The notes beneath the pieces were generated by a model, which saw nothing but the letters and a program-made list of their open reading frames with translations, made no database searches and was not told where the DNA came from. 64,000 nt of DNA, taken from IMG/VR virus record IMGVR_UViG_3300028844_006119, positions 1 to 64,000 of that record; one strand, given 5' to 3'. The stretch is from a virus. A program made the position numbers and the translations under genes. Shown here in pieces: positions 5,531 to 33,791 of this stretch. Within the stretch, counting starts at the first letter, position 1; every line of letters starts with the position of its first letter.

Positions 5531-5569
5531 GTAGATTATTTATGCCTCTTTTTCTCCTTGTTTTTACCC
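5531..5569 (-). promoter_or_regulatory. repeated promoter-like motif (copy 4)
   Basis: GGGTAAAAACAAGGAGAAAAAGAGGCATAAATAATCTAC. Confidence 0.7.
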
Positions 5570-6248: not shown

Positions 6249-6287
6249 CTACTATATTTATGACCTAAAAAGCCCCCATATTAGCCC
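6249..6287 (-). promoter_or_regulatory. repeated promoter-like motif (copy 5)
   Basis: GGGCTAATATGGGGGCTTTTTAGGTCATAAATATAGTAG. Confidence 0.7.
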
Positions 6288-6723: not shown

Positions 6724-6799
6724 TGGTGGAGGATATCGGAATCGAACCGATGACATCCAGCTTGCAAAGCTGGCGCTCTCCCAACTGAGCTAATCCCCC
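6724..6799 (-). tRNA. tRNA-Ala(TGC)
   Basis: Cloverleaf, CCAGC-TTTGCAA-GCTGG, encoded CCA. Confidence 0.97.
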
Positions 6800-6800
6800 A

Positions 6801-6876
6801 TGGCTCCGGCAACAGGACTCGAACCTGTGACCCGCGGATTAACAGTCCGCTGCTCTACCAACTGAGCTATACCGGA
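6801..6876 (-). tRNA. tRNA-Asn(GTT)
   Basis: Cloverleaf, GCGGA-CTGTTAA-TCCGC, CCA. Confidence 0.97.
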
Positions 6877-6888
6877 ACATTCCTATTG

Positions 6889-6962
6889 TGGCTGGGGCAC
6901 CAGGGATCGAACCTGAGACGTCGGCGCCAAAAACCGAAGTGATACCGCTTCACCATACCCCA
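6889..6962 (-). tRNA. tRNA-Gln(TTG)
   Basis: Cloverleaf, TCGGT-TTTTGGC-GCCGA, CCA. Confidence 0.93.
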
Positions 6963-7157
6963 TTACTCCGGTTGAAGATCTGCCTCGTCGGTCCAGAAGG
7001 ACTCATATTCATAGGGGGACTTATCCTCCGGAAATGCCCCAAGCTCCGGGCTGTCCCACTTGACGAGAACAATAGTAGAGCCCTTTCCTTCTTCTCGCTG
7101 CATAGCCGTCCCCGTACCATAAGCATGGTGGGATACTCGCGTGCCTGGTTTGATCAT
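6963..7157 (-). CDS. small SH3/KOW-like hypothetical protein between tRNAs
   Basis: GGAG RBS; KPGTRVSHHAYGTGT..VLVKWD pattern. Confidence 0.6.
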   Translation of the reverse strand: MIKPGTRVSHHAYGTGTAMQREEGKGSTIVLVKWDSPELGAFPEDKSPYEYESFWTDEADLQPE

Positions 7158-7181
7158 TGGGTCTCCAAAGAAGAGGTAAGG

Positions 7182-7269
7182 TGGCGGAGAGAGTGGGATT
7201 CGAACCCACGGTAGGTTGCCCTACACTCGCGTTCCAGGCGAGCACCTTCGTCCACTCGGTCATCTCTCC
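7182..7269 (-). tRNA. tRNA-Ser(GGA)
   Basis: Long variable arm, CTCGC-CTGGAAC-GCGAG, CCA. Confidence 0.97.
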
Positions 7270-7274
7270 TAAAA

Positions 7275-7359
7275 TGGTGCGAGAAGGGGGAATCGAACCC
7301 CCACTCCTTAAGGAACCAGATCCTAAATCTGGCGCGTCTACCAATTCCGCCACCCTCGC
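7275..7359 (-). tRNA. tRNA-Leu(TAG)
   Basis: Long variable arm, CCAGA-TTTAGGA-TCTGG, CCA. Confidence 0.97.
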
Positions 7360-7480
7360 TTAAGTGTCCCGAGTCTCACGAGCCTAAGGTTTATACTGAC
7401 ATCGGCTTCTACCTCTAAAGGTCCGTGTCGCCCTCAGATTTGTCCTGCCTGAGGTGCAGGGGCGACATAGGGGCCGCCAA

Positions 7481-7577
7481 GAAAAAGGGGGGCTGGGGAG
7501 ACCGTCCCGGGACGGTCTGGGTCCGGTCTCTTTTCCTTACGCATAAAAGGAGGTACGTAAGAAGGGCAGCCCAGCTC
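7481..7577 (-). ncRNA. candidate three-way-junction RNA with an anti-Shine-Dalgarno loop (or branched terminator)
   Basis: GCTGGG/CCCAGC closing stem; CTTACGTA-CCTCCTTTTA-TGCGTAAG hairpin; 20-bp perfect palindrome 7499..7518; 3' U-tract. Confidence 0.4.
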
Positions 7578-7584
7578 TGCCGAA

Positions 7585-7731
7585 TTATTCCTTCGGGCTC
7601 TCGGAATCCCCTGAGCACTTCTTACACCGAGTCTCCCCGTCTTTTAACTCTTCTCTGCTCCCGCAGGGACATTGGCGTACCTCCTTAGCAAGGCCTAGCG
7701 CCTCAATCAATGCGAACTTCATTTGGTCCAT
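7585..7731 (-). CDS. 48-aa Cys-rich putative Zn-binding protein (not in ORF track)
   Basis: GAGG RBS; MDQMKFALIEALGLAKEVRQCPCGSREELKDGETRCKKCSGDSESPKE. Confidence 0.65.
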   Translation of the reverse strand: MDQMKFALIEALGLAKEVRQCPCGSREELKDGETRCKKCSGDSESPKE

Positions 7732-7750
7732 CGGTCCCTCGAAAGTGTAA

Positions 7751-7837
7751 TGGTGCCCCGAGTGGGAATCGAACCCACACGCCTGTACAGGCCAGGGATT
7801 TTAAGTCCCGTGCGTCTACCGATTCCGCCATCAGGGC
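7751..7837 (-). tRNA. tRNA-Leu(TAA)
   Basis: Long variable arm, GGGA-CTTAAAA-TCCC, CCA. Confidence 0.96.
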
Positions 7838-7841
7838 GCAG

Positions 7842-8372
7842 CTATGATGCCCTTTTAGCAGAAAGAGCTTCCTTTTTGCGGAGCTTATCCCTGCGGTGAG
7901 CCACACGAACTCCGCATTTACGGGAGCAGTACATGGATTTCTCGCGACCTCTTCCCTCGCAGGGAGGCCAGGCGCAGGATGGGAGGTCCCCTTCCTCCTG
8001 AGGCCCCGCCCAGATGAGACGCAGGTCGGGGTCTTCATCTCCAACTCGATAAGGGAATCCTGGGATCTCGGAAGGCATGAGACGGAGCATGCGCTGCTTC
8101 TCTCGGTATCTCCTATCCCGCTCTCTCTTCTTCTTTCGGGCTTCCGCCTCTTTCCGATCTTCTGCCTCCTGGAGAAGGCGAGCGGACTCAGCTTTTTCAG
8201 CTTTTTCGAAGTTTGAAGAGTACTGGAGGACATATGTCTGAACCTGAGGTTCTCCGTAGAGTCTCCAGCCACAGACATAGCATCCTAGATACACCTCGTC
8301 TCGCCAGTTCATTTTGGTGGACTGGAGATAGACGTGGTGAGATCCACATTTTTGGCAGGGGGGCTTGCGCAT
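7842..8372 (-). CDS. multi-Zn-finger basic protein
   Basis: CQKC..CYVC, basic coiled coil, CAWPPC..YCSRKC; GGAG RBS. Confidence 0.7.
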   Translation of the reverse strand: MRKPPCQKCGSHHVYLQSTKMNWRDEVYLGCYVCGWRLYGEPQVQTYVLQYSSNFEKAEKAESARLLQEAEDRKEAEARKKKRERDRRYREKQRMLRLMPSEIPGFPYRVGDEDPDLRLIWAGPQEEGDLPSCAWPPCEGRGREKSMYCSRKCGVRVAHRRDKLRKKEALSAKRAS

Positions 8373-8420
8373 CGTCGTGTCTCCCAAAGTTATGTACGTT
8401 GGGTTTCTGAGGCAGGGGAG

Positions 8421-8448
8421 AGGGAGAGAGGCTCCAGCCTCTCTCCCT
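8421..8448. terminator. strong hairpin after the Hc1-like gene
   Basis: AGGGAGAGAGGCT-cc-AGCCTCTCTCCCT; no clear U-tract. Confidence 0.5.
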
Positions 8449-8458
8449 ACTCCCGACT

Positions 8459-8644
8459 CTACTTCTCGAGATTAATGCTGGCCTTGCGGAGCGCCTTGAG
8501 GCGCTTCTCTAGGGCCAGGGTCGTCTTTCGAAGGTTCCGATTGGCGGTCTTCCAGCCGTATTCGCGAGCGTCGATCTTTTCGCAGTCGTCTTCGTGTTCT
8601 GCCAGCATCTCAATAAGTGCGGCGAGTTCGTCTAGTAGGCTCAT
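8459..8644 (-). CDS. histone H1-like Hc1 family protein
   Basis: EDDCEK..GWKTANRNLRKTTLALEKRLKALRKASI resembles the Hc1 core (D.EK...GNK.A..R.RK....LEK..K..RK.SI). Confidence 0.65.
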   Translation of the reverse strand: MSLLDELAALIEMLAEHEDDCEKIDAREYGWKTANRNLRKTTLALEKRLKALRKASINLEK

Positions 8645-8667
8645 TTGTTCCTCTGTGTTTTTATGGG

Positions 8668-8741
8668 TAGGTCTGCTCGGAGTTGAACCGAGGCACTCTC
8701 GCATATAAGACGAGCGCTCTAACCGACTGAGCTACAGACCC
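8668..8741 (-). tRNA. tRNA-Ile(TAT)
   Basis: Cloverleaf, CTCGT-CTTATAT-GCGAG, discriminator A; 3' end reads A-CCCA rather than A-CCA. Confidence 0.9.
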
Positions 8742-8974
8742 AGATGGCATTCTTGGGTGTCCCCTGCATCATTTCGTACGCACTGCCCCAATTCCTCCGC
8801 AACCCTCAGGTAGTGCTGGTAGTTCGTAAAGAATCGGGGGTCCTTATTGGTCTGAGACAGGCGGTACCACCTTATCGCGATCCCGACGTAGTCGGGCTCC
8901 GCTACTAAGGTCTTCTTCAGTCTGGTTATGCCCAGGTTTCCCTCCTCTTTTACGGAGGTAGTTGGCCCTCTCAT
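8732..8974 (-). CDS. hypothetical protein (80 aa)
   Basis: GGAG RBS; fills the gap between tRNA-Arg and tRNA-Ile. Confidence 0.5.
   Translation of the reverse strand: MRGPTTSVKEEGNLGITRLKKTLVAEPDYVGIAIRWYRLSQTNKDPRFFTNYQHYLRVAEELGQCVRNDAGDTQECHLGL
8920..8953 (-). promoter_or_regulatory. repeated promoter-like motif (copy 6; intragenic, upstream of tRNA-Ile/Hc1)
   Basis: GTAAAAGAGGAGGGAAACCTGGGCATAACCAGAC (TAAA-N18-CATAA). Confidence 0.4.
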
Positions 8975-9028
8975 CGTTCAATCTCCGGAGGGTTGGTAGA
9001 TCCCACATCTCAGTGTCCTCAAGTAAGG

Positions 9029-9105
9029 TGGTACCCCGACCTGGACTCGAACCAGGGACCCTCGGCTTAGAAGGCCGATGCTCTATCCAGCTGAGCTACC
9101 GGGGC
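9029..9105 (-). tRNA. tRNA-Arg(TCT)
   Basis: Cloverleaf, TCGGC-CTTCTAA-GCCGA, CCA. Confidence 0.97.
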
Positions 9106-9157: not shown

Positions 9158-9391
9158 ATGTTTGGGCGCATCCAAATTATAAACAACCAGGAGCAGAAGC
9201 ACTCCGCCAAGTCCACGTACAACGCAATCTGCGTTTACAGTGAGTTTGGTACTTACGAGACACTGATGCTCACCGAGAACGAGCTAGCGAGAGTCCGAGG
9301 CCGGGCTGAGAAGAACCCGGAAGATCAAATTCAGATCTCATCGCTATCCCGCTTCGTGATGGCTATCCTCAGGGGGCTACGAATCCTTTAG
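9158..9391 (+). CDS. hypothetical protein (77 aa)
   Basis: AAGGA RBS, plausible composition. Confidence 0.65.
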   Translation: MFGRIQIINNQEQKHSAKSTYNAICVYSEFGTYETLMLTENELARVRGRAEKNPEDQIQISSLSRFVMAILRGLRIL

Positions 9392-9721
9392 ACGCTGCTT
9401 CCATGTCTGGGACTCTTTGCTCCAGTCATACGAGCGGAGCAGAGGCCCTTCCTCGCCCACAATCCTGCGGTGAATGACATCTACGTCATCCAGCCAGATG
9501 CGCTCGTCTCGATCATGGATGGCCAGGACGATGAGGTCGTCGTCGTCCGCAAGGAGGCCAATCAGAAGAGCGTACCGGATCTTCTCCCCCCGGGGGGTAG
9601 TAGTGGTGTTGCTCTTTGCGCACTCCCAGAGAAGCCCCTCTTCTGTAAGTTGAAGTTGGTCCCCGGTGGAAGGGAAGTACGTCTTGGGGGAAAGGCTTCC
9701 CCGTCTGCCTCGTCGTGCCAT
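9377..9721 (-). CDS. hypothetical protein (114 aa)
   Basis: AGGAG RBS, upstream motif. Confidence 0.7.
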   Translation of the reverse strand: MARRGRRGSLSPKTYFPSTGDQLQLTEEGLLWECAKSNTTTTPRGEKIRYALLIGLLADDDDLIVLAIHDRDERIWLDDVDVIHRRIVGEEGPLLRSYDWSKESQTWKQRLKDS

Positions 9722-9752
9722 GCTCTTCTCCTGCGGCTATGGATTTTCTGAC

Positions 9753-9788
9753 GTAGTGGTTATGCTGTTTTATGTCGAACTTTTTATC
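9753..9788 (-). promoter_or_regulatory. repeated promoter-like motif (copy 7)
   Basis: GATAAAAAGTTCGACATAAAACAGCATAACCACTAC (TAAA-N18-CATAA). Confidence 0.5.
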
Positions 9789-15069: not shown

Positions 15070-15582
15070 ATGCTAGAGAGACACATAACAGCCTCGAATA
15101 TTATCGAGTTGATCGAAGAAAGCTCCAACGACGACAGAACTTCCCATAAGGCACTCCTCAGAGTAGTGGGCCCGGAGAGGGCCTGGTCTGGCCTGATGCT
15201 CGAAGTCTTGAGAGTCCCCGAGGAGGGATCAGACTTTATCGTGTCCGTGCGAAAGGAGTACTTCCTCTCCGACGAGAACAAGCCCTCGTTCGTCTGGGTT
15301 CTGATGATCTGGGGAGACCTCCTGCAGGCATTTTCCGAGATCGGACCCGTACTGCAAGCTCACAAGACTCACAAGACGCCACGCAAGTCCCCGGTAGTAG
15401 GAAAGGGCGGGGCATCTTCTCCCAAGGCCAAGGGGTCCCACACGGTGGTGACTGAGTCGGTGTCCACAATCCCTTTGCCCTTTCGCCGAGGCAATAGAAA
15501 TGACCCCGGCGTTACCCGCAGCCTAAGCAACAGAAAAGGGGTCGGCGCGTTCGTCTCCACTATCCAAGACGGAGGGATGTGA
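15070..15582 (+). CDS. hypothetical protein (170 aa)
   Basis: Operon packing. Confidence 0.7.
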   Translation: MLERHITASNIIELIEESSNDDRTSHKALLRVVGPERAWSGLMLEVLRVPEEGSDFIVSVRKEYFLSDENKPSFVWVLMIWGDLLQAFSEIGPVLQAHKTHKTPRKSPVVGKGGASSPKAKGSHTVVTESVSTIPLPFRRGNRNDPGVTRSLSNRKGVGAFVSTIQDGGM

Positions 15583-16235
15583 TGCCCCACTCCCCGCAAG
15601 ATATTGAGCGTATTACCAATCGCCTGAACCAGCGGATCCTGGAAGCGGCCGACGAGTCGGCCAAGGAGATGGCGAAGAGAGCTGACTTCAAGATCCAGAT
15701 CTGGTTCAGGTCAGACCGCTCCATGAAGAAGCCGATTGCCTTCACTCTCTCTTTCTGGGAGTCGGGTAAGAGGCTTCATGGTGGCGGAGACGAGATGATG
15801 TTCGTCTGTCGGCGACACGCCCAGTCCCCAAAGCTCAAGCCTTTCGACCTGGCGATGTCTACGTCCAAGTCTGTCCGAGGCTGCGATGGCCTCATTCCTG
15901 GAGGGCTTGCGCAGGAGACCGGATTTGTAATGTGCCCGCACTGCCAAGCAACTCACAAGCTGGACCAGATTGGAGACTCCATCTTCTACCGGGCTACCCT
16001 TGAGCAGGCGGCGGTTATCATTGCGAATTGGTGGCGTAAGATCGGGAACAACGCGGACCTGTACGCGAAGTACAACCCCACGGACCCCAGATCCGTTATG
16101 ATGGCACAGAACTACGACTACCGGACTGCCAGGGAGAAGAAGGGTCTTACCATCTACCCTCTTCAAAGCATCCTCAAGGACACCCTTAACGGATCGACCC
16201 TAGAGTCCCGAGTAAAAGCCTTCTTATCTGCCTGA
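15579..16235 (+). CDS. hypothetical protein with Zn-ribbon
   Basis: GGAGG RBS; C..C..CPHC. Confidence 0.75.
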   Translation: MMPHSPQDIERITNRLNQRILEAADESAKEMAKRADFKIQIWFRSDRSMKKPIAFTLSFWESGKRLHGGGDEMMFVCRRHAQSPKLKPFDLAMSTSKSVRGCDGLIPGGLAQETGFVMCPHCQATHKLDQIGDSIFYRATLEQAAVIIANWWRKIGNNADLYAKYNPTDPRSVMMAQNYDYRTAREKKGLTIYPLQSILKDTLNGSTLESRVKAFLSA

Positions 16236-16241
16236 GCCAAA

Positions 16242-17207
16242 ATGCCCCACTCCCCGGACCTCATTGACTCGATCCTGAAGGAAGCGGGATTCTTCGACGA
16301 CATGAAGTCGAAGTTGACGGGCTTTCTCCAGTCTCGAGAAAAGAAGAGGGCGACCTCTAGGGTAGGGGCGCACTTCGACTCTAAGGATAAGGACTGGGAC
16401 CGGGTAGTTGCGAACTCCTCCCGCAAGTCCTTCGTTAAGGAGCTTGCGGGAGATGCTCGAGCTGACGACAAGCTCAAGATGCACGTCGACAGCATGAACC
16501 GTCTCAAGACCGGCAAGGTCCTGAGCACGGTCTCCGGCACGGAGGGGAGCCGCACCGCACGTAGGGACGGTTCCCAGTCCTACAAGATCGTCAAGCTGCG
16601 CGGATCAAACCGCCTCGGCTGTACCTGCCGAGACTGGAGATTCAAGAAGTCTGTGGCGGCGCAGGGAGAGCAGGCGGACTGTAAGCACATCCGCGAGTTC
16701 AAGCAGGTGAACAAGACTGCCGGCCACGTAGAAGATCGCATCGCAGAGCGCGCTCCGGGGTCGACCTACGAGGTCGCCAAGATCAAGGCTCAGATCCCAA
16801 GCATGAAGCTCCGCAAGGGGCAGACCTACCACGTCCCCCTTAAGAGAGGGAAAGGTTACGCGGTCATCGGAGACATCGGGCCGAAGCATGTGGTCAAGAC
16901 CGTACTGGGCCCGAACATGCGCCCGCCCGGTCATCGCGCCAAGGCCCAATTCGGAAGGCTGGCCGGACAGAAGCTTGCCCGTGCTCCTCGAGACTACAAG
17001 CAAGAGTACGCCGAGTACCACGGTAAGCCTGATCAGGTCTCTAATCGCAGTCTCCGCAACCAGGCCCGAAGAAAGATGGGGCTAAAGAAGGGAGATCCTC
17101 GGGAGGTCGACCACAAGACCCCAATCTCTAAGGGTGGCGGTAACGGAAAGGGGAACCTCTCCGCAGTAAGCAGAGAGTTCAACCGACGGAAGTTCAATGG
17201 ATCATAG
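16242..17207 (+). CDS. mosaic basic protein: SWIM-type Zn finger plus C-terminal HNH-like module
   Basis: CTCRDW..CKHI; EVDHKTPISKGGGNGKGNL..NR; KEAG, KTAG and KLAR at module boundaries. Confidence 0.8.
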   Translation: MPHSPDLIDSILKEAGFFDDMKSKLTGFLQSREKKRATSRVGAHFDSKDKDWDRVVANSSRKSFVKELAGDARADDKLKMHVDSMNRLKTGKVLSTVSGTEGSRTARRDGSQSYKIVKLRGSNRLGCTCRDWRFKKSVAAQGEQADCKHIREFKQVNKTAGHVEDRIAERAPGSTYEVAKIKAQIPSMKLRKGQTYHVPLKRGKGYAVIGDIGPKHVVKTVLGPNMRPPGHRAKAQFGRLAGQKLARAPRDYKQEYAEYHGKPDQVSNRSLRNQARRKMGLKKGDPREVDHKTPISKGGGNGKGNLSAVSREFNRRKFNGS

Positions 17208-17571
17208 CCCCAACTCCATGTACACCTACGATGCGGAGATCTTGTCTGTCTACGACGGAGATACCGCAACGGCTACGGTAGACCTGGGCTTCAAGGTGTC
17301 TGCCATCAAGGTCAAACTGCGCTTCTACGGCATCGACACCGCTGAGATCCGAGGCGGCACTGAAGCAACCAAGATTGCCGCAAGAGAGGCTCGCGACTAC
17401 GTCAAGGAGAAGATCCTCGGCAAGAAGGTCCGAATGAAGTCCCTCGGCAAGGGCAAGTACGGGCGATACCTGGCGATCATTTGGCCCATCGACGACAATG
17501 GGGTTCCGTCAGAAGAAAGCATTAATGACGAGCTAGTCCGTATTGGGATGGCCAGCCCGTATTTGAGGTAG
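17197..17571 (+). CDS. thermonuclease (SNase-like) family protein
   Basis: VYDGDT, LRFYGIDTAE, GKYGRYLA, SINDELVRIG. Confidence 0.9.
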   Translation: MDHSPNSMYTYDAEILSVYDGDTATATVDLGFKVSAIKVKLRFYGIDTAEIRGGTEATKIAAREARDYVKEKILGKKVRMKSLGKGKYGRYLAIIWPIDDNGVPSEESINDELVRIGMASPYLR

Positions 17572-17573
17572 AT

Positions 17574-18083
17574 ATGCGTTTATTTTCGGGATTTACTCTG
17601 GAGCTGATTAAGCTTGCGGCCGGCAAGGTCAAGTGCCCCAAGTGCGGGCACATGAACCATGCTGGCGCGGAAAAGTGCTCAAGCTGCGGCTATCACCTCG
17701 GCGGATCGAAAGAGGCTGCAGCGTGTCCGCTTGCGACTCGCGACCTCAAGGCCAATACAAAGAACCGCAATAAGTCGATCCAGGCCGACCACATCCAATA
17801 CGGCCCCCTGAATCTATCTGATCAAGGGTATTGGAAGCGCCTGGCTGCGCACTGGAAAACGACTCCGGCGGTAGCCAAGAAGTCAAAGTGCTCAAACTGT
17901 GTGGCCTTTGATGTCTCTCCGAGGATGCAGGATTGCATGCCGGGCATGGTGCAGGAAGATGGCCACCTCGGGTATTGCCACATGCATCACTTTAAGTGCC
18001 ACTCTGCCCGTACTTGCTACACCTGGGCGGGCGGGGGACCAATCACTAAAGACTCCGTGTCCACAGACTGGGAAAAGAAATGA
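17574..18083 (+). CDS. two-module Cys-rich protein (Zn ribbon plus Cys/His-rich module)
   Basis: ELIKLAAG-CPKC..CSSC-SKEAAA-CPLAT..CSNC..GYC..FKCHSARTC..W. Confidence 0.75.
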   Translation: MRLFSGFTLELIKLAAGKVKCPKCGHMNHAGAEKCSSCGYHLGGSKEAAACPLATRDLKANTKNRNKSIQADHIQYGPLNLSDQGYWKRLAAHWKTTPAVAKKSKCSNCVAFDVSPRMQDCMPGMVQEDGHLGYCHMHHFKCHSARTCYTWAGGGPITKDSVSTDWEKK

Positions 18084-19564: not shown

Positions 19565-19687
19565 AACACACCCTGCTTTCCCGAATGATCCGGTGCGCCC
19601 AAGGTGCGGCGTGTACTTCTTTGCTTCCTCCGGAGGTCTCGCGGTTTCCTCGCAAATTTGTTATGACAGCAAAAAGGAGAAAATAAT

Positions 19688-20945: not shown

Positions 20946-22244
20946 CTACAGTTCGGGGTTGATGCACTCATTTTCTGCTTTGTCTTCCCGCACCACGATG
21001 AAGCGAGGGAACTGCAGAGCGTCTGTCTTGTCTCCGCGAGACCTGTAGGTCCGCGACTCGTACTTGACCTGGACGACCTTGGGCCAGCTGTCCGTAGTCG
21101 AGTTGCTCTCGATGAACTGCTTGCTCCAGCCGTTGCCCATGTCGCAGATCTTCACAGTCTCCCCCAGATGGTTGATCTGAAAGAGCTCGACCGATCCCAA
21201 CTTGCCGGTGTACTTCCCTCGGCCATAGGCTCCGATCCCGTTGTCCGGGTCCCATAGCGCAATGAAATCATCCTCGAATACCGGCTTGATCTTTGCGCAG
21301 GCATTTCTCGGACGCTCTGCCTTGCCTCGAAGATTGAAGCCGCGATCCCCGTAGCTTTCGTTCGGATCGATGGCTACGAAGCCCTCCCATTTGCGGAAGT
21401 GGGCTAACTCCATGATCTCTTCCAAGGTCTCTGGGTACTCTCCCTCGACAAAGATCTCCGGGCACACAAGGTGGGACGCACTATTTGCAAATTCCTCGGC
21501 CCAGTCCAGTCGGATGGAGATCTTGGTGGTCCCTAGGAGCTGATGGCCATCCATCCAAGCCACGTCCCAGATGACATACCGAAGAAGGTCCGCGTCGTTC
21601 TGATGCTGAAGGGCCTTGTCCGTCTTGCTCTTCAGCACCTTGGCTACGTTCCACCGATCGTCCTCGTCGGATGCCCCGATGATCTCCCCCAGGAGGATGG
21701 TCCCGTTGGGAATAGTTGGCTGCTCGATGTCCCGGACAATTTGAGGAAACCGAGCCGTCCACGGGATGTCCGGCTCGAGGTGGTGATGGGGAAGCATCCT
21801 GCGTGAGTACATCTCACACCGACCTTCCAGGGTCTTTCGGACGACCATCATCTCGCCGTCGTACTTCCGAAGAAGCCACGCCTCCGATTGCTCAATCTTC
21901 TGCTTCATGGTCGCAGTGATCGAGTTGAACGGCTTGTAAAAGCAAAGGTTCGTGGGGAGCGTCTCCGCAGAGATAACGTCCACCTCCCCCTCGTCCGACT
22001 CCGTTCCGACCTCTACATAGCCCTTCCGGGTCTTCTTCAGGACCATCCGCTCTGCCAGGAGAACGGCGTCCTCCTCTGCTGTCATCTCGTTGGCTCGGCC
22101 AACGTTCTTAGGCTCTCCGAGATCGACGACCTCTTGCATTTTGCCGTCTAACTGCCCAAACTGGGTGTGGATCTCATTGCCGAATACGGCGATACTCCAT
22201 ACCCTCACTGCACCTGTACGACTCGTGTTACGAAATTCTCGCAT
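20946..22244 (-). CDS. ATP-dependent DNA ligase with N-terminal WGR-like domain
   Basis: Motif I RKYDG, III LLGEI, IIIa YVIWDV, IV WEGFV, V KIKP, VI LQFPRF..REDK; N-terminal VWSI..TQFGQLDG..K.RKGY. Confidence 0.9.
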   Translation of the reverse strand: MREFRNTSRTGAVRVWSIAVFGNEIHTQFGQLDGKMQEVVDLGEPKNVGRANEMTAEEDAVLLAERMVLKKTRKGYVEVGTESDEGEVDVISAETLPTNLCFYKPFNSITATMKQKIEQSEAWLLRKYDGEMMVVRKTLEGRCEMYSRRMLPHHHLEPDIPWTARFPQIVRDIEQPTIPNGTILLGEIIGASDEDDRWNVAKVLKSKTDKALQHQNDADLLRYVIWDVAWMDGHQLLGTTKISIRLDWAEEFANSASHLVCPEIFVEGEYPETLEEIMELAHFRKWEGFVAIDPNESYGDRGFNLRGKAERPRNACAKIKPVFEDDFIALWDPDNGIGAYGRGKYTGKLGSVELFQINHLGETVKICDMGNGWSKQFIESNSTTDSWPKVVQVKYESRTYRSRGDKTDALQFPRFIVVREDKAENECINPEL

Positions 22245-22255
22245 TAATTACCTCC

Positions 22256-22290
22256 GAGTTCTTTATGACCGATAAAAGCCAGATACTAAA
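22256..22290 (-). promoter_or_regulatory. repeated promoter-like motif (copy 8, upstream of the ligase)
   Basis: TTTAGTATCTGGCTTTTATCGGTCATAAAGAACTC (TAGT-N17-CATAA). Confidence 0.5.
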
Positions 22291-22492: not shown

Positions 22493-22805
22493 TGGCCGGC
22501 AGATACCCCTCTGACTTCTCCTTCGCAGTGGAGAAGTATTCAATCAGTTCCTGGGATACAGACCCTGCTATCGCTGCGCCTTGACCGTCCACGGCCCATT
22601 GGAGCCAGCTGGACACATAGATGCCCAGTCGGGGGTCATAGCGAACCGCCAAGGCCTCCGCGTCATGCTCCGCTACCTCGACACAGCTAATGGCCCAAAA
22701 GGGGAATCGGCCCCCATCACGGGGGCCAGCCCCACACTTCGGGCACTGGTAGAGACCTTCTGCGATCTCTACCAGCCTGTGTCCCCTGTTGAGGGGACAC
22801 AGCAT
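22413..22805 (-). CDS. Zn-ribbon hypothetical protein
   Basis: MLCPLNRGH..YQCPKC; TGATG coupling to the upstream gene. Confidence 0.6.
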   Translation of the reverse strand: MLCPLNRGHRLVEIAEGLYQCPKCGAGPRDGGRFPFWAISCVEVAEHDAEALAVRYDPRLGIYVSSWLQWAVDGQGAAIAGSVSQELIEYFSTAKEKSEGYLPAITEEGSGCGPELSEMMYPTPLGEKLL

Positions 22806-23149
22806 CAGGCCCATCTCGAGGGCTGCAGGCGCGTAATGCGCCGGATTTCCGGGATGTGGTCTTGCGGCTTTTGGCACGTCCCCATCCACCACGCCGCCTC
22901 CTGCGGCGTTAGCCGGACAGACTTTCCTCCCCAGGCAGGGTCGCCTGGGGGAACCTCTACCCATTCCCGAGGGGGTACCTCTCTCTCCTCCAGCTCCTCC
23001 CCCGACTGCTTAGCCGCGTTCCCTACGCACGCTCTCTTGAAGAGCTCCATGTTCCTCGCGGCTTCCTCGTCCATCTTTTCGTTCTCGTCCAGTAGCCAAT
23101 TGGCTACTGGACCGACGACCATCATGGTCGCGGTGATTACTCCAAGCAT
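22805..23149 (-). CDS. hypothetical protein (114 aa)
   Basis: GGAGG RBS before ATG 23149; upstream motif. Confidence 0.7.
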   Translation of the reverse strand: MLGVITATMMVVGPVANWLLDENEKMDEEAARNMELFKRACVGNAAKQSGEELEEREVPPREWVEVPPGDPAWGGKSVRLTPQEAAWWMGTCQKPQDHIPEIRRITRLQPSRWA

Positions 23150-23171
23150 GTTACCTCCATGTTTGCGGTAC

Positions 23172-23206
23172 ACTGTACTTATGCCTCCAAAGGGCTCATT
23201 TTTGAG
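23172..23206 (-). promoter_or_regulatory. repeated promoter-like motif (copy 9)
   Basis: CTCAAAAATGAGCCCTTTGGAGGCATAAGTACAGT (CAAA-N17-CATAA). Confidence 0.55.
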
Positions 23207-28486: not shown

Positions 28487-31400
28487 ATGGCACTTACTGG
28501 GACAGGGGGAGCACATTACCTCCACTTACGTTGTTTTCTGGAAGGCATTGAGGTCCCCGTTATCGGGGCATCGGTAACCTCACAGCTGAACGCCCCCGCT
28601 ACGGCCAACATCCAGATTGTTCCCAGCGACAGGCTAGCCACGCTTCTCCCCAGGACGACAGTGCACCTGTTCTTCCTGGATTCCGTGACCTTCGCTGGTC
28701 GGGGGGAGGGAGCCGAGCCTGACGATCATGACTACCGCCTTATGTTCTGCGGAGAGGTATTCGACACATCTATTGGAAAGTCTGGGCACGGGTCGAGATC
28801 GGCGTCTCTTCGGTGTATGGACTTCTCGAATGTCTGGGACACCAACTACTCGTACATCATGAGATACGCGGTGGGCGCTCAGGAGACCGCCGAAGGCGGG
28901 GCTATCCTAAAGAATGTGTCCGGCTTTGTAGGAGGCGGCGGCACCAATAACGGGTCAGGGAACTCCAACCCCTTCGATGACATCGTCAACTCGCCCGCCG
29001 ATGTTATTGCGCGGATGGCCACCGCATCTGGAGCAGGCAACCCGGCCGCTCCAGGAAAGGGCACCGTTTTGGGGGGCCTTCTGGCCGTACTCGAGCTGTT
29101 GAGCGGCATTCAGGGCCTATATATTGGGATTAATCCGTGGGCTACGGTCCATGAGCGCCGCTGCCGAGTCATGGACTCCCTTGTCTCCGACAATGGGACG
29201 ACCGCCAAGAGCCTGTTCGACCAGCAGGTGTTTGCTGACTGGCTTCAGCAGAGGACAGGTACTGCCGCCTCTGTGATCAGCTTTCGGCAGATCATCAACC
29301 TGATCCTCGGGTACATCTACTACGACGTGGTCACCAACGTCACTCCCTCTTATTTTGCGGGAGATAACGGGGCGGGCCTTCCAGGCAGAGACGTCCCGGA
29401 GTGGAAAGTATCGGCAGGAGGTCCTGCGGAAGAGGGGGGCGAGAGCGATGCCCTATCCTTATCGGAGCTCACAAACATGGGTCCCGTGCCTCGGGGCAAA
29501 GTTGCGGGGCTCGACTCAACGTTCTGGGCCTATTGCACAGAGGTACTAACCAAACTCAGTGAACTATGTGCTACGCAGAAATTCAAATCCGGAAGTATGG
29601 CGGGCAAACCCATAAGGTTCGCGATTACCTCCGGCTATCGGAACATGGAACAGCAGCAGGCACTGAATGACAAGAAGGCGGCAGACGGGAAGGGAAAGAA
29701 GGCAACCAGGAGGGCACATACCGCTGGGTTCGCAATCGATATTGCGGCCATAGGCATCGGGGCGACAGGAACCATGCCGTACATGAAGGGGGAGAAAGGC
29801 TCTACGATGGGCAAGCCCATCCCGATAGAAGTGGCAGCTGGGCCAAAAACCAACGCCACTAAGCGCTTTAGGGCGGCTCTCTTCGCCCTTGAGATGCAGC
29901 AGGGCCCCATAATCAATGCGAGTATCACTGATTTTGATGACCTGCTGAAGAAGATCAGAGCACATGAGAATACCTTGAGTAAGTGCTTTGTGAACGAGGC
30001 CGGACTGGCAGTGGCGGAGGCTACTGTTCGCAACGCCGCTCAATTTTGGAAGCTGTATGGCGAGGCAGTAAAGGCAGTAAATAAAACCACGAAGACGGGC
30101 ATCAGAGGTTGGTGGGGCGGGGACTGGAAGACCGCCACGGACCCCCTCTGGGGAATGTTCGGCGTTGGACTAGATCCCGTTCACGTAGAGGACGAGGACT
30201 GGGACGGAAAAACTGCCAGCACCTTGGGAGGATTCGCGCCCCCCACAGAGGTGAGCGCAGTTCTACGTAAGGGGGAGTCCCGGGAGACGCTCAAGTCCTT
30301 CATCTTCCGGCCCAATATCTGGTTTTGTGCGCCGCCCCTGTGCAATGTAGTTCTGCCGCATATGTACGAGACCATGTCTGTGAGCAGGCAGATGATGCGG
30401 GAAACCACGCGACTTCAGCTGGACGCGTTCAACCAGTTCTTTGAGAGCAACGTACTAAACACATTTTACTACGCCCCGCAGTTTCAGGCAGCGGAGGGAA
30501 AGACCTCCGCAAACCACGTTATGGGCGAGGGCATGGGCTCCGTCACCAAGACCATCGTCATGGATCACGAGGTATTCTCGGGAATCATCCCGAAGATGGA
30601 GCGGATCTCGGAGATCTCTTTTTACGCAAAACAGTCGGGGCAGGGATCGGAGCTCCGAGTGACTGACTCGGGAGAGGTGGAGGCATCGTCCGCCCAAGCA
30701 ACTATTGTTGACTACGGGGAGCGGGTCGCACATTACAACTTCCTGACCCACAGGTTTGCGGCCCGCAGCGGCTCCTTCGGGGGCCCATTCAACCCCTACC
30801 TGGTGTGCGGGTTTCCAGCGGTGCTTGTTGACTCCGTCCCTTCACTCAGCAAGGAAGAAGACCGGGCGGGCGTACTACAGAGTATTGCGGAGGGAGAGAG
30901 GCCCTCAACTAAGGTCCACTGGCTGGGGACTATTGAATCCCTGAGTCATACGTATGACCAGTCCGGGGCCAGGACAACTGCGCAGCTCAAGTATGTGAGG
31001 TCCCACAGAACGGGGGACAACACAGACGATTTGCTTGCGGAGTCTGTTACGGACCAGGGCATCTTCAAGATTCAGGATGCCGACTACTCTCCGGCTATAG
31101 GTGATGGGGCGGTTGCGTGGCCTGTCACGTCCGTCAAGACCATGACCGCCGAGCACCAGAAGAAGCTAGAGGATTTCAAGGATGCCTGGATCTTCCAGTA
31201 CGTAGCCAAGACCGTGGGTGGGAGCCTGGAGAAGCTTTCGCAGTCCTTCCTCATCAAGCTGTATTCTGGGATCCCCCCGGAGAAGGATGATGTGCCGCCG
31301 GCAGATCAGTACAGGGCGCTAGGTCCGAATACTGCCGATAAGTCCAAGGAGAAGGTCTCCGTAGACGCCAGCATTAAGAGTCCCACCGGGACGGAGATTA

Positions 31401-32473
31401 CGGAGGTTTCTTGGTCCGGAGCAGAGACTTGGGCTGTGGTCCGGTTCAAGGTCGCCCTCCCCGAACAGGGCCGGAAGCAGTTTCTCTCCTTTAAGGCGGG
31501 TCTTACTGAGATCACCCTCATGGAGATGTCCAGGTCTTCGGCTTACCCATTCACAAAGGATGTGGAAGAGCATAAGGCCTTGGCGGCGTTTGGGGAGATG
31601 AGTGAGATCTACGACATAGGCGCCATTCAGTCAGATCCGACTGGAAGGTTTGCGCCAGTGCAGATTGATGTCCCTGTGCTTTTGCCGGGAGATACCCTCA
31701 CTATTGCGTATAAGGGGTCTTCGGGATCTGTAGCGGGCAGCCGGGATCTGCCCATTGAGGAGGCTATTAGGCCCCCATTCATAGACAAGGGTGTGTACAC
31801 CAATGCGCCGTCAGAGGAGGAGGGGTACTCCAAGATAGACTTGCTTTATGGGCATCTCTTTGGCTCCCCTTCGGTCATCCATAACCTACTCCTGGCGGGG
31901 GCTACTCCGTACGACGGCATGGATATCCACTCAGTGGAGCAGGCCGTTGACTACATCGTGGCGACTGCTAGTATTCAGGAGGGAACTCAGCAATCATACG
32001 TTTCCGCGTTGACCAGCAGGAACATTGCAAGCCTGCCTGACATTTTGGCCCCTAAGGGGTGGAAGCCTAAGCCCGCCTCAGAAGGGGGGTACCTGTGGGA
32101 GTACGACGCAGGCACCAGCGCCAAGGACATCAAACTCACCGGCGGGTTCCACTCCAACGCCGTCACGGGGAAGAGCCACATAGGCCTTAAGGGGGTCTCT
32201 GAGATCTCCGAGGTCGGGCAGAAGCTGAAGTTTGGCTCTCGTCTGGAGTTCCTGGACCTAGAGACGACCCGGGAGCTGGGCTCTCGTTTGATGCCCGAGG
32301 AGAAGGTGACCCTTGGCGAAGACACCTCAATCCGACTAGACCCTAGAGCGCCCCGCGCGAAGAGGGTTACCGAGTACTTGCAGGATATTGGTGGAACTTC
32401 TGCTCTCCGTAAGTTAGACTTTGGGTCTACTGGATTTACTACGACGCCGGACGGCCGAGGAGGAAAAGGATGA
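28487..32473 (+). CDS. putative baseplate hub protein with inserted M15 Zn-peptidase domain
   Basis: Hub-like N-terminus (LEGIEVPV..ATANIQI..LMFCGEV) and late GPFNPYLVCGFP..IESLSH segment; insert ITSGYRNMEQQ..AHTAGFAIDI..WGGDW..DPVHVE. Confidence 0.7.
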   Translation: MALTGTGGAHYLHLRCFLEGIEVPVIGASVTSQLNAPATANIQIVPSDRLATLLPRTTVHLFFLDSVTFAGRGEGAEPDDHDYRLMFCGEVFDTSIGKSGHGSRSASLRCMDFSNVWDTNYSYIMRYAVGAQETAEGGAILKNVSGFVGGGGTNNGSGNSNPFDDIVNSPADVIARMATASGAGNPAAPGKGTVLGGLLAVLELLSGIQGLYIGINPWATVHERRCRVMDSLVSDNGTTAKSLFDQQVFADWLQQRTGTAASVISFRQIINLILGYIYYDVVTNVTPSYFAGDNGAGLPGRDVPEWKVSAGGPAEEGGESDALSLSELTNMGPVPRGKVAGLDSTFWAYCTEVLTKLSELCATQKFKSGSMAGKPIRFAITSGYRNMEQQQALNDKKAADGKGKKATRRAHTAGFAIDIAAIGIGATGTMPYMKGEKGSTMGKPIPIEVAAGPKTNATKRFRAALFALEMQQGPIINASITDFDDLLKKIRAHENTLSKCFVNEAGLAVAEATVRNAAQFWKLYGEAVKAVNKTTKTGIRGWWGGDWKTATDPLWGMFGVGLDPVHVEDEDWDGKTASTLGGFAPPTEVSAVLRKGESRETLKSFIFRPNIWFCAPPLCNVVLPHMYETMSVSRQMMRETTRLQLDAFNQFFESNVLNTFYYAPQFQAAEGKTSANHVMGEGMGSVTKTIVMDHEVFSGIIPKMERISEISFYAKQSGQGSELRVTDSGEVEASSAQATIVDYGERVAHYNFLTHRFAARSGSFGGPFNPYLVCGFPAVLVDSVPSLSKEEDRAGVLQSIAEGERPSTKVHWLGTIESLSHTYDQSGARTTAQLKYVRSHRTGDNTDDLLAESVTDQGIFKIQDADYSPAIGDGAVAWPVTSVKTMTAEHQKKLEDFKDAWIFQYVAKTVGGSLEKLSQSFLIKLYSGIPPEKDDVPPADQYRALGPNTADKSKEKVSVDASIKSPTGTEITEVSWSGAETWAVVRFKVALPEQGRKQFLSFKAGLTEITLMEMSRSSAYPFTKDVEEHKALAAFGEMSEIYDIGAIQSDPTGRFAPVQIDVPVLLPGDTLTIAYKGSSGSVAGSRDLPIEEAIRPPFIDKGVYTNAPSEEEGYSKIDLLYGHLFGSPSVIHNLLLAGATPYDGMDIHSVEQAVDYIVATASIQEGTQQSYVSALTSRNIASLPDILAPKGWKPKPASEGGYLWEYDAGTSAKDIKLTGGFHSNAVTGKSHIGLKGVSEISEVGQKLKFGSRLEFLDLETTRELGSRLMPEEKVTLGEDTSIRLDPRAPRAKRVTEYLQDIGGTSALRKLDFGSTGFTTTPDGRGGKG

Positions 32474-32706
32474 TTTCTCAGGACATGCTTCAGGCATTCA
32501 ATGAGGCGCTGCTCAAGGAAGCTGTTGCCCCTCCGGCTGCGGCAGCGAAGATGAGTGGCAAGATGAAGGGACTTCTGGGCCTCGGAGCTGCTGCCGGCGT
32601 GGGAGCGGGAGTTCTCGGAGAGCAGGCCAAGGATGATATCGTCCAAGGACGGCTGTCCAGAAAGCAGATGGCTCGCGGCCAGGGCGTTCACCACCTGCTT
32701 ACCTGA
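32470..32706 (+). CDS. small putative virion protein with N-terminal AFxExLxKEA motif
   Basis: MLQAFNEALLKEAVA; glycine-rich hydrophobic segment. Confidence 0.7.
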   Translation: MISQDMLQAFNEALLKEAVAPPAAAAKMSGKMKGLLGLGAAAGVGAGVLGEQAKDDIVQGRLSRKQMARGQGVHHLLT

Positions 32707-32713
32707 GAGTCTC

Positions 32714-32968
32714 ATGAGCGACAAACACAGTCTTTTCCAGAGATCCCCGGAGGCCCTTCTCAGTGAAGGTGCCGAGCGATCTAACGTGGCCGTCACCAAT
32801 CAGATGCTGGACGACTTGTTCTCCAGAAGAGATGTGATGGGGAAGAAGGCGTATTCCCAGCTCCGCTCCCTGTTCACGGGCAAGGAGCACTATGGGCGCA
32901 ACACTCGCCTCGGCATGTCCGCGAATGAATCCTCTAAGCTCGTAAATCGGGCCTTTAGTGGTGAGTAG
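32714..32968 (+). CDS. hypothetical protein (84 aa)
   Basis: Operon packing. Confidence 0.6.
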   Translation: MSDKHSLFQRSPEALLSEGAERSNVAVTNQMLDDLFSRRDVMGKKAYSQLRSLFTGKEHYGRNTRLGMSANESSKLVNRAFSGE

Positions 32969-33791
32969 CCTGAGAGATAGGCTGCAGAAGATCGCAGCGA
33001 AGGACCCCTACGAGTTTCCCAAGACGTGGGGCACCAAGGATCGCAAGACAGGTGAGGTTACCCCTTTCTACGGTAAAGCCGCGAAAGAGGTAACTATGTG
33101 GAGGACATGGAAGGAGTCCGGGGAAGATCCCGACCACCTTGCCCCTCTTCTCCAGTCTCTAAATCCTGTGATCAACAGTAATGTTCTGCGCCACCGCGCC
33201 CCACGCATTCACAAGCCGGTGATAGAGGCCGAGGCTCGAACTCTCACCGTGAAGGCACTGCGGAGGTACAACCCCTCTCGGGGGACCATGGTCTCCTCCC
33301 ACGTACACAACAATCTGAAAGGTCTGAACCGCTTTGTAAAGAAGCACCAGAACTTCACACGCATCGTGGAGACTCAGGCCAATAAAATTGGTGATTACGA
33401 CAGGGCAAAATCCTCGTTGGCAGAGGAGCTGGGCAGGGACCCAACTACCTTAGAGATCTCGGACAGAATTAAGTTGTCCCCGAAGAAGGTGGCGCGTCTC
33501 GAGAAGGAGCTCCGTAAGGACAAGTTCTCTGCACTGCCCTCTGACGATATGATCAGTGCCAACCCTTTCGAGAAGACGCTCCCTGAATCCCGAGAGATCA
33601 TTGAGATGCTCCCCTACGAGCTCACAATGAACGAGCAGGCGGTGTTCAACCACCTGTACGGGCGTGGCGGCTTTCGCAAGGACCGGATGACCAAAAGTAT
33701 CGCCAAGAAGTTGGGCTGGTCGGAGTCCAAGGTATCGCAAGTAAAGAACTCCATTATCAAGAAGTACCACGCGTACGAGGACTCTTTTTAA
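32958..33791 (+). CDS. sigma-70 family group-3 (FliA/WhiG/SigB-like) sigma factor
   Basis: Region 2 KALRRYNPSRGTMVSSHV; region 3 LAEELGRDPTTLEISDRIKLSPKKV; region 4 LTMNEQAVFNHLYG..KSIAKKLGWSESKVSQVKNSIIKK. Confidence 0.88.
   Translation: MVSSLRDRLQKIAAKDPYEFPKTWGTKDRKTGEVTPFYGKAAKEVTMWRTWKESGEDPDHLAPLLQSLNPVINSNVLRHRAPRIHKPVIEAEARTLTVKALRRYNPSRGTMVSSHVHNNLKGLNRFVKKHQNFTRIVETQANKIGDYDRAKSSLAEELGRDPTTLEISDRIKLSPKKVARLEKELRKDKFSALPSDDMISANPFEKTLPESREIIEMLPYELTMNEQAVFNHLYGRGGFRKDRMTKSIAKKLGWSESKVSQVKNSIIKKYHAYEDSF

Follow-up and report, generated by a model that had tools for sequence, protein, structure and literature searches.

Why would a tailed phage place a bacterial-type sigma factor among its late structural genes, and which RNA polymerase would such a factor serve? 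The question is raised by a sigma-70-family gene at 32958–33791 on the plus strand of IMG/VR virus record IMGVR_UViG_3300028844_006119. The stretch analysed in this study, called the window from here on, is the first 64 kb of that record (positions 1 to 64,000), which has a total length of 142,186 bp, is 77% complete by CheckV estimate and is designated G000 among the genomes compared. The reading that we favour, with moderate confidence, is that the sigma factor confers promoter specificity on a phage holoenzyme carried in the virion, in which it would be combined with the phage's own single-chain beta–beta' polymerase and would start early transcription. More broadly, a widespread and mostly uncultured virus lineage appears to combine a polymerase of its own with a matching canonical sigma factor.

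The open reading frame (ORF) at 32958–33791 encodes 277 amino acids (aa) from a GTG start codon that overlaps the stop of an 84-aa ORF upstream, and the position of this start agrees with the alignment of about 35 homologues. Its product is a genuine, very divergent sigma-70-family protein, group-3-like and outside every curated subfamily. Pfam Sigma70_r3 is called at 34.5 bits (cut-off 25.3), the match to Sigma70_r4 is weak and region 2 is not called by Pfam; PHROG 351, 'RNA polymerase sigma factor', matches with an E-value of 1.5e-10, and a profile of 21 homologues aligns with the RpoS, RpoD and SigA chains over regions 2.2–4.2 (E 7e-13). In the AlphaFold2 model (predicted local distance difference test, pLDDT, 76.7) the domains follow each other as sigma2 (residues 40–135), sigma3 (138–184), a disordered region 3.2 linker (188–209) and sigma4 (210–276), and the best 50 Foldseek matches of this model in the PDB are all sigma factors (E down to 1.6e-8), with B. 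subtilis SigD ranked first. On the plus strand these domains correspond to 33075–33362 for sigma2, which is placed by profile and model and contains the surface on which the beta' clamp helices are predicted to dock, to 33369–33509 for sigma3, where the Pfam call coincides with helices in the model, and to 33585–33788 for the helix-turn-helix domain sigma4, annotated as residues 210–277 from the weak Pfam match, the profile alignment to RpoS region 4 and the model. Both profile alignment and model give the architecture sigma2-sigma3-sigma4 without region 1.1, as in group 3 sigmas. A first-pass annotation of this DNA had called the gene a group 3 sigma factor, and Pfam, PHROG, profile and fold agree with it on the family; group 3 is indeed nearest, yet the closest NCBIfam subfamilies, FliA/WhiG (TIGR02479, 36.2 bits against a cut-off of 189.6) and SigB/F/G (TIGR02980, 33.4 bits against 234.35), are matched at scores far below those of members.

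The same genome encodes an RNA polymerase. A 2112-aa ORF at genome 84606–90944 (plus strand), outside the window and 51 kb downstream of the sigma gene, contains in one open frame the beta domains Rpb2_6 and Rpb2_7 followed by the beta' domains Rpb1_2, Rpb1_3 and Rpb1_5 (PF00562, E 7e-69; PF00623, E 7e-23; PF04560, PF04983 and PF04998 in the same ORF), and so specifies a single-chain beta–beta' polymerase. Its catalytic NADFDGD motif is intact and is invariant in 10 relatives, and the segment before the motif aligns with residues 177–356 of E. coli beta', including the clamp helices. The ORF lies directly 3' of a homologue of the portal protein gp204 of the cultured phage Arash, and is collinear with Arash gp206 plus gp216. 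The first-pass annotation had pictured the sigma factor as redirecting the host core enzyme, a 'light-weight alternative to a virion RNA polymerase', and it is this premise that a complete-looking beta–beta' polymerase, encoded near the portal gene with its NADFDGD motif intact, removes.

The two genes also occur together across relatives. The polymerase is present in 16 of the 18 IMG/VR records that have a homologue of the sigma factor, the remaining two being a 29%-complete fragment and a 45-kb contig with a weak partial hit; genome G001, a relative in which the sigma is 57% identical, has the polymerase as well. In cultured phages, a sigma homologue was found in four, Arash and the Vibrio phages D69, D148 and D181, and a full-length polymerase match in precisely these four. 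No second sigma factor was found in G000 or G001 by running the homologue profile on six-frame ORFs, a PF04542 search in five genomes found none in this clade (G000, G001, G006, G010), and tblastn with the second sigma of Arash, gp196, likewise detected none in this clade.

The sigma factor was folded together with polymerase residues 1000–1440, the N-terminal part of beta', both entered as alignments. The resulting complex scored 0.71 against 0.00 for the best control, a verdict that supports binding and does not show it; the mark applied to such scores was reached by 58 of 80 solved complexes and by 2 of 110 mismatched pairs. Separate runs shared at least 37% of contacts, the partner had a pLDDT of at least 69, and the modelled interface set segment residues 208–248, the clamp coiled coil, against sigma2 (sigma residues 56–99 and 130–136). 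The model shows a predicted canonical docking surface retained in the sigma factor. Since holoenzyme structures have already been solved, the pass may reflect what the predictor has learned from them, and it speaks for likeness rather than for binding.

Evidence on packaging comes from Arash, which infects Salmonella and whose sucrose-gradient-purified particles have been analysed by mass spectrometry (PMC10585845). The most-detected protein was the polymerase chain gp206, with 128 unique peptides and 3516 spectra, the other chain, gp216, gave 40 unique peptides and 1210 spectra, and the sigma homologue gp10 gave 24 unique peptides and 467 spectra at 100% coverage; by spectra, the polymerase exceeds the capsid protein, and gp196 is absent from the particle protein table (PMC10585845). 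By a rough calculation of our own, gp10, gp206 and gp216 have 2.0, 2.3 and 2.0 spectra per residue, values compatible with equal amounts. The authors suggested early transcription as a possible role of the polymerase and considered carry-over possible as well, and their paper contains no analysis of promoters, sigma–polymerase pairing or packaging signals (PMC10585845). For the sigma family as a whole these data are fair evidence, though not proof, of association with the particle together with the polymerase, so that the virion location proposed in the first-pass annotation has a counterpart in a relative whose abundant particle sigma is 27% identical.

Two further Arash genes may be noted. 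The second sigma gene, gp196 (Sigma70_r2, E 6e-10; OQ632216.1 120656–121693, plus strand; L043:45657–46694), lies in a non-structural region, is also found in the Arash-like record G017, and may specify a late-gene factor of that clade. Directly after gp216 is gp217, annotated as a DNA helicase (OQ632216.1 141261–142679; L003:16262–17680), which is detected in particles with 38 unique peptides and 1148 spectra, on a par with the polymerase chains, and which could be a further polymerase-associated factor. No homologue of gp217 was found in the genome of the present phage by tblastn.

The position of the sigma gene fits a late product. It is part of a tightly packed plus-strand operon (ORFs are those of a codon-score caller), with ORFs of 1117, 546 and 1328 aa upstream; 3' of it are a 597-aa gene and then a hairpin with a T-run, terminator-like by eye, followed further on by genes for a tail-tube-like product and for a protein of 2294 aa that contains a baseplate-wedge domain. 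IMG/VR relatives keep the order 1117-546-1328-sigma-(597)-tube down to about 30% sigma identity, and in Arash the sigma gene gp10 comes after gp8, which encodes a virion cell-wall hydrolase, in a position matching the one here. The first-pass annotation had remarked on a sigma gene within the tail and baseplate block, and this location in a structural operon is held in the relatives.

What would such an enzyme read? The strict promoter pattern TAAW-N17/18-CATAA occurs six times in the window against 0.32 expected, a number reached by 0 of 100 shuffles, and nine times in the whole 142-kb record against 0.3 expected, with every copy on the minus strand; the figure of nine copies given in the first-pass annotation is therefore correct for the record and too high for the window. 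Among 7-mers ahead of genes, GGCATAA and GTCATAA show the strongest enrichment, and G[GT]CATAA has 19 of its 20 copies on the minus strand. Alignment of 47 sites on the heptamer brings out a T.AAAA(A) block, −35-like, at 14–20 bases upstream, and, 6 and 7 bases after the heptamer, a T at −1 (33/47) and a purine at +1 (44/47). This is the classical −35/−10/pyrimidine(−1)–purine(+1) layout of sigma-70-family promoters, although the base at −7, unlike that of sigma-70 promoters, is T in only 9 of the 47 sites. A matrix scan of the genome returned 25 hits on the minus strand and 5 on the plus strand, against about 2.6 expected per strand, with 10 sites falling within the window. Most minus-strand ORFs have a predicted start 11–70 nt upstream, as does a cluster of eight tRNA genes (Ala, Asn, Gln, Ser, Leu x2, Ile and Arg; 6724–9105, minus strand), so that strict hits and matrix sites alike precede the minus-strand non-structural genes, as had been claimed, and the tRNAs as well. 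Nothing comparable was seen ahead of plus-strand operons, k-mer enrichment for a late plus-strand promoter in G000 and G001 gave only the reverse complement of the early motif, and neither the sigma gene nor the polymerase gene is preceded by a CATAA promoter.

Within the window, the individual predicted sites, all on the minus strand, begin with one of 31.5 bits at 638–672, which has a −35-like TAAAA and a −10-like GGCATAA and a start at 638, 41 nt before ORF 37–597. Sites found by both strict pattern and matrix are at 1152–1186 (start 1152, before ORF 680–1123), 5532–5567 (start 5532), 6250–6284 (start 6250), 8918–8953 (start 8918, upstream of tRNA-Ile and further tRNAs) and 9752–9787 (start 9752, before ORF 9377–9721 and tRNA-Arg). 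The matrix alone detected a site with a degenerate −35 at 1695–1729 (start 1695, before ORF 1259–1657), and matrix sites also occur at 22255–22289 (start 22255, 11 nt before the 432-aa ORF 20946–22244) and 23171–23205 (start 23171, before ORF 22805–23149), the last diverging from the plus-strand operon of the sigma gene.

A few copies of the promoter stand apart. One of 22 bits at 19653–19687 (minus strand) points into the plus-strand block at 9.7–19.6 kb, with no minus-strand gene for 10 kb, and could drive an antisense or small RNA, and a similar site at genome 84570 (minus strand) diverges from the start of the polymerase gene. Promoters clustered at one end of the contig (638–6284, minus strand; 149–160 kb in G001) carry an extra downstream block, CATAA-ATA-TAGTA, that is missing from the dispersed copies in both genomes, and these may form an immediate-early subclass. 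The lone strong copy on the plus strand (21 bits) is 34 nt before a gene in the non-structural region at genome 128111–128969 (L021:4111–4969). This gene, with its start at genome 128145 (plus strand), was considered as a candidate late sigma factor and rejected, the product being ParB/KorB-like (PF02195, PF08535).

Comparison with relatives shows how this promoter class varies along the lineage. In G001 the strict pattern is hit 14 times where 0.15 would be expected, and 13 of these hits are on the strand that does not carry the sigma gene; in G003, G005 and G006, where the sigma is only 41% identical, the motif is likewise on the opposite strand. In Arash, GGTATAA occurs 39 times on the early strand against once on the other, within a consensus of tCCAATAA-N12-tGGTATAAGTAAAGTG that has the same spacing to the T-G start as here and a G at −7 in 30 of 39 sites; the lone plus-strand copy, before gp9/gp10, was taken as chance, as it has no −35-like block and lies 5 nt from the start codon. 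The tRNA genes of Arash, many more than here, also stand on the early strand amid promoter sites. G010, with a sigma only 29% identical, has GCAAnn-N-GGGATAAGA with a G at the same start position. Whole-genome k-mer strand asymmetry was swamped by codon bias in G010 and G007, and an intergenic method recovered the motif for G010 and gave nothing clear in the G007 fragment. The spacing is identical in this clade, Arash and G010, and the GGnATAA(g) geometry is common to the lineage. Along with these clades changes the base at −12, which is C here, T in Arash and G in G010, and the residues aligned to sigma region 2.4 differ in step (KGLNRF, RKAKRL and RKAMRY). The consensus recognized by housekeeping sigma factors is constant across bacteria, whereas the one here varies from one phage clade to the next, as would be expected of a reader encoded by the phage; this is suggestive only, as the hosts differ too.

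Taken together, the observations suggest the following course of events. Encoded in late structural operons, the sigma factor and the polymerase would both be made late, would most likely be built into the particle together and would be delivered with the DNA. In the next cell, the holoenzyme would initiate at some 20–25 promoters of the form T.AAAA(A), 14 bases, G(G/T)CATAA, with a T–purine start about 7 bases downstream, all facing the minus-strand non-structural genes and the tRNAs. We infer in this that the sigma factor would pair with the phage polymerase, that the pair would read these promoters, and that packaging, and any cleavage, would take place in the present phage. The sole clear promoter class is not sigma-70-like and is missing before the sigma and polymerase genes, which argues that its reader is present before phage gene expression; by this bootstrapping argument, the promoter-reading enzyme would already be there at the start of infection.

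Several points weigh against a packaged holoenzyme. The present phage is known from its genome alone, and the particle data come from a distant relative, the gp10 of which is only 27% identical to the sigma factor here and has no leader. The record is 77% complete, and a second sigma factor or polymerase could lie in the missing part. The complex model of sigma and beta' cannot distinguish the phage core from the host core, and from one clade to another the host varies along with promoter, sigma and polymerase, so that their covariation is not specific proof. The late genes on the plus strand yielded no promoter class of their own, and it is these genes that the sigma factor could serve instead. 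The Arash particle list comprises 116 proteins and includes replication enzymes, and its authors allow for carry-over (PMC10585845).

It is on this last point that the best-surviving alternative is built, namely that the holoenzyme forms but is not virion cargo, being made first by the host polymerase and acting inside the cell, with the Arash signal due to carry-over. The list of 116 does include ribonucleotide reductase, primase and helicases, carry-over is named by the authors themselves, and the particle data come from outside this clade. The replication enzymes, however, mostly rest on 2–3 unique peptides (PMC10585845), against 24 for the sigma factor and 128 and 40 for the polymerase chains, and the second Arash sigma is not in the list. 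Across the whole lineage the sigma and polymerase genes are in structural operons, by the virion hydrolase and portal genes, and no sigma-70-like promoters were seen ahead of either gene. On balance we regard a holoenzyme that stays outside the particle as unlikely.

A lower probability still is given to an arrangement in which a host holoenzyme reads the minus-strand promoters, either through sigma-70 at an extended −10-like TGnTATAA or through a sigma-28-like factor, and the phage sigma and polymerase drive the late plus-strand genes. Most phages do use the host polymerase for early genes, the Arash tGGTATAAG is close to an extended −10, the motif of this clade has sigma-28-like spacing, and GGGATAA of G010 resembles the CGATAA of sigma-28; in addition, with no late promoter identified, the sigma factor may have a target other than the minus-strand sites. 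Such a host enzyme would nevertheless have to accept a −7 base that is not T (T in 9/47 sites here, G in 30/39 in Arash), a −12 base that is C or G in two clades and a −35-like block unlike TTGACA, and the shift of the consensus between phage clades would contrast with the constancy of the housekeeping consensus. Moreover, a late sigma encoded only in a late operon would need another first source. The proposal of the first-pass annotation that the sigma alone is packaged, clipped after K-x-A, injected and used to redirect the host core to the CATAA promoters in place of a virion polymerase is the least probable of all, for, although the sigma gene is in a late operon and has a leader common to other proteins, the promoters are sigma-type, many phage sigmas such as T4 gp55 and SPO1 gp28 use the host core, and a bacterial-type sigma2 could in principle dock on the host clamp, the phage has a catalytically intact-looking beta–beta' polymerase that co-occurs with the sigma in every sizeable relative, that outnumbers the capsid protein by spectra in Arash particles, and whose gene beside the portal would be hard to explain.

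If the sigma factor is packaged with the polymerase, by what means might it be loaded? Its first 14 residues (VVSSLRDRLQKIAA; 32958–32999, plus strand) form, in the homologue alignment and in a model of low pLDDT (51–56), a short helix that ends in K-I-A-A, and residues 15–39 (33000–33074, plus strand) comprise the conserved KDPYxFPxTWG and a predicted beta-hairpin that is absent from Arash-type sigmas. The first 24 residues (LRxRLxKIAAKDPYxFPxTWG) are conserved across some 35 homologues of 57–94% identity, with L9 invariant and K11, A13, P17, F20, P21 and W24 at least 90% conserved; the N-terminal extension pointed out in the first-pass annotation is thus real, and the leader and the CATAA motif were found together in related genomes. 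More distant sigmas have different short extensions that also contain K-x-A (LDKAAA, LQKEAA, KTKTAT, SKEAEK), and Arash-type sigmas have no leader at all. As the latter are nonetheless found in particles, packaging in the family as a whole does not depend on the leader.

The leader is shared with other proteins of this genome. The motif [DENQ][ERKAQ][ILVFM]xKxA occurs 11 times within the first 30 residues of called proteins, where 1.57 occurrences would be expected (P 8e-7), and the late strand accounts for 9 of the 11. The leader of the sigma factor, SSLRDRLQKIAAKD, is nearly identical to MSSIRDRLEKIAAAKD at the start of a head-module protein of 101 aa (genome position 109180), which is encoded between a protease-like gene and that of the major head protein, and several small proteins around the head genes begin FFSDE[IV]xKxA. 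The peptides SILKEAG, ELIKLAA and EALLKEAV, attributed in the first-pass annotation to putative head-cargo proteins, are indeed present at N-termini at 16269, 17601 and 32503; of the proteins concerned, those at 16242 and 17574 gave no identifying Pfam match, the latter only a zinc-ribbon. The leader peptide thus recurs at the N-termini of otherwise unrelated late proteins, in the manner of capsid-targeting and propeptide leaders. In T4, a short N-terminal capsid-targeting sequence on unrelated late proteins directs them into the prohead and is removed by the prohead protease, and one injected T4 enzyme, Alt, acts on transcription; the prohead protease of phiKZ likewise trims head proteins. 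The likeness to the T4 system lies in the recurring peptide, and the motif here (Phe/Leu-Ser/Arg-Asp-Glu/Arg-Ile/Leu-x-Lys-x-Ala) is unrelated to that of T4. By analogy, the K-x-A leader, a portable module common to late proteins, may target or process cargo in head assembly. The 657-aa product of genome 105219–107192 has a weak match to a head protease (phrog_18299, E 9.6e-5) and no Pfam match.

A more elaborate form of the packaged holoenzyme would be a self-contained bacterial-type enzyme without alpha or omega in the virion, loaded by means of a K-x-A leader that the prohead protease removes, and acting on a promoter particular to the lineage, in which the −12 base and sigma region 2.4 have evolved together. 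This combination is put forward only tentatively, and we think it rather doubtful that all of its parts hold at once.

Other proteins touch on the leader. At genome 107170–108123 (plus strand; L020:3170–4123) is a gene for an acidic protein with repeated [LF][EF]-K-x-A-A units (DLEKAAS, LFEKAAAAE, TKEASA, LFEKTAAAE), which are conserved in G001; G000 and G001 both have K-x-A-S just before a conserved C-terminal peptide, and the protein looks scaffold-like, with several candidate protease sites. The polymerase itself starts, at genome 84606–84680 (plus strand; L019:606–680), with about 20 residues (MANLAPGDAYRLLEERTKEA) before the first stretch that, compared with the N-terminus of E. coli beta, looks bacterial-beta-like; TKEA within these residues (17–20) is kept in G001, and the N-terminus could be a degenerate K-x-A leader. 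Three consecutive genes at 15582–17571 (plus strand) have near-identical openings (MPHSPQDIERI, MPHSPDLIDSI, MDHSPNSMYT), the third encoding a staphylococcal-nuclease homologue (PF00565, E 3e-11), and the next gene, 17574–18083 (plus strand), is that of the zinc-ribbon protein with the ELIKLAA N-terminus.

How does this system compare with those already described? The FliA/sigma-28 promoter consensus is TAAA-N15-GCCGATAA. With this group the phage sigma shares the sigma2-3-4 architecture without region 1.1, and its promoters share an A-rich −35 and an xATAA −10 at the same spacing, from which they differ in that the CGA key of the −10 is replaced by KCA; the protein differs in its extra 40-residue N-terminal extension. 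Phage sigmas that act on the host core belong to phages without a polymerase of their own and are made early or in mid-infection, and we know of none of the T4 gp55 or SPO1 type that is encoded in a structural operon or has been reported in particles. What T4 gp55, SPO1 gp28 with gp33/34 and the sigmas of group 2 jumbo phages have in common with the present case is a sigma-family protein that alters promoter choice, and the group 2 phages, which have a sigma and no polymerase (PMC7824862), speak for use of the host core.

The virion-polymerase scheme proposed here, known in this phage from genes alone, resembles that of phiKZ and AR9, in which a phage-encoded two-barrel polymerase is made late, packed into the head, injected and used for early genes (PMC7598289, PMC7824862). 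It differs in that the polymerase is a single chain whose similarity to bacterial beta and beta' suffices for scores above the Pfam cut-offs, and in the presence of a canonical sigma2-3-4 protein and bipartite −35/−10 promoters. Virion polymerases have been known as the single-subunit enzyme of N4 and the multisubunit enzymes of phiKZ and AR9, the latter without a sigma factor (PMC4496689, PMC7598289, PMC7824862). The record fits the mReC lineage, tailed phages from metagenomes with bacterial-type beta and beta' (PMC7481178): both subunits are recognized by cellular models, and genes for TerL, major head protein, portal and baseplate are present. The words sigma, virion and promoter are absent from the main text of that study, and what is added here to the published description is the sigma partner with its place in a structural operon, and the promoter class (PMC7481178). 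The nearest known system is Arash, with a homologous sigma (gp10, 27% identity) encoded at the corresponding position, 3' of the gene for a large hydrolase, a homologous polymerase 3' of the portal gene, a two-strand layout with early-strand tRNAs and the same promoter geometry. Arash differs in having the polymerase in two chains (gp206, 1525 aa, and gp216, 606 aa) rather than one, a gp10 without N-terminal leader or hairpin, a second sigma, gp196, where none was found here, and T rather than C at −12. In the literature searched, no description of a virion-associated pair of sigma factor and phage polymerase was found beyond the Arash paper.

Large phages are usually sorted into those with their own sigma-less polymerase, such as phiKZ and AR9, and T4-like ones with a sigma for the host enzyme (PMC7824862). 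A packaged holoenzyme, if confirmed, would be a third strategy of phage transcription beside 'own polymerase, no sigma' and 'own sigma, host polymerase', and the first classical sigma holoenzyme to serve as injected start-up machinery. As a compact two-protein system with a defined promoter, such a pair would be useful for studying minimal polymerase–sigma recognition; the simple −35/−10 promoter can be read straight from the genome, and the clade-specific −12 base and region 2.4 changes offer a directly testable specificity code. Since Arash is cultured and infects Salmonella, the main predictions can be tested now.

The neighbours of the sigma gene deserve a final comment. The 1328-aa protein (28487–32473, plus strand) has a lysozyme-like stretch and is a weak homologue of Arash gp8. 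It is followed by a 78-aa Gly/Ala-rich protein (32470–32706, plus strand) with a leader-type N-terminus (MISQDMLQAFNEALLKEAV) and by the 84-aa ORF (32715–32968, plus strand) directly 5' of the sigma gene, which is kept in loci L023 and L024. The 20 kb around the sigma gene gave no megablast match among cultured phages, and PHROG and Pfam scans of about 45 proteins from the neighbourhood, the head module and the plus-strand block named few, so that no name can be given to the 597-aa 'sheath' or to the three very large products encoded 5' of the sigma gene. Further along the plus strand, at 41660–63674, are four very large ORFs of the tail and baseplate region (2294, 799, 1645 and 2334 aa), among which the one match to a known family, baseplate wedge (phrog_6), is confined to the first 270 residues of the 2294-aa ORF.

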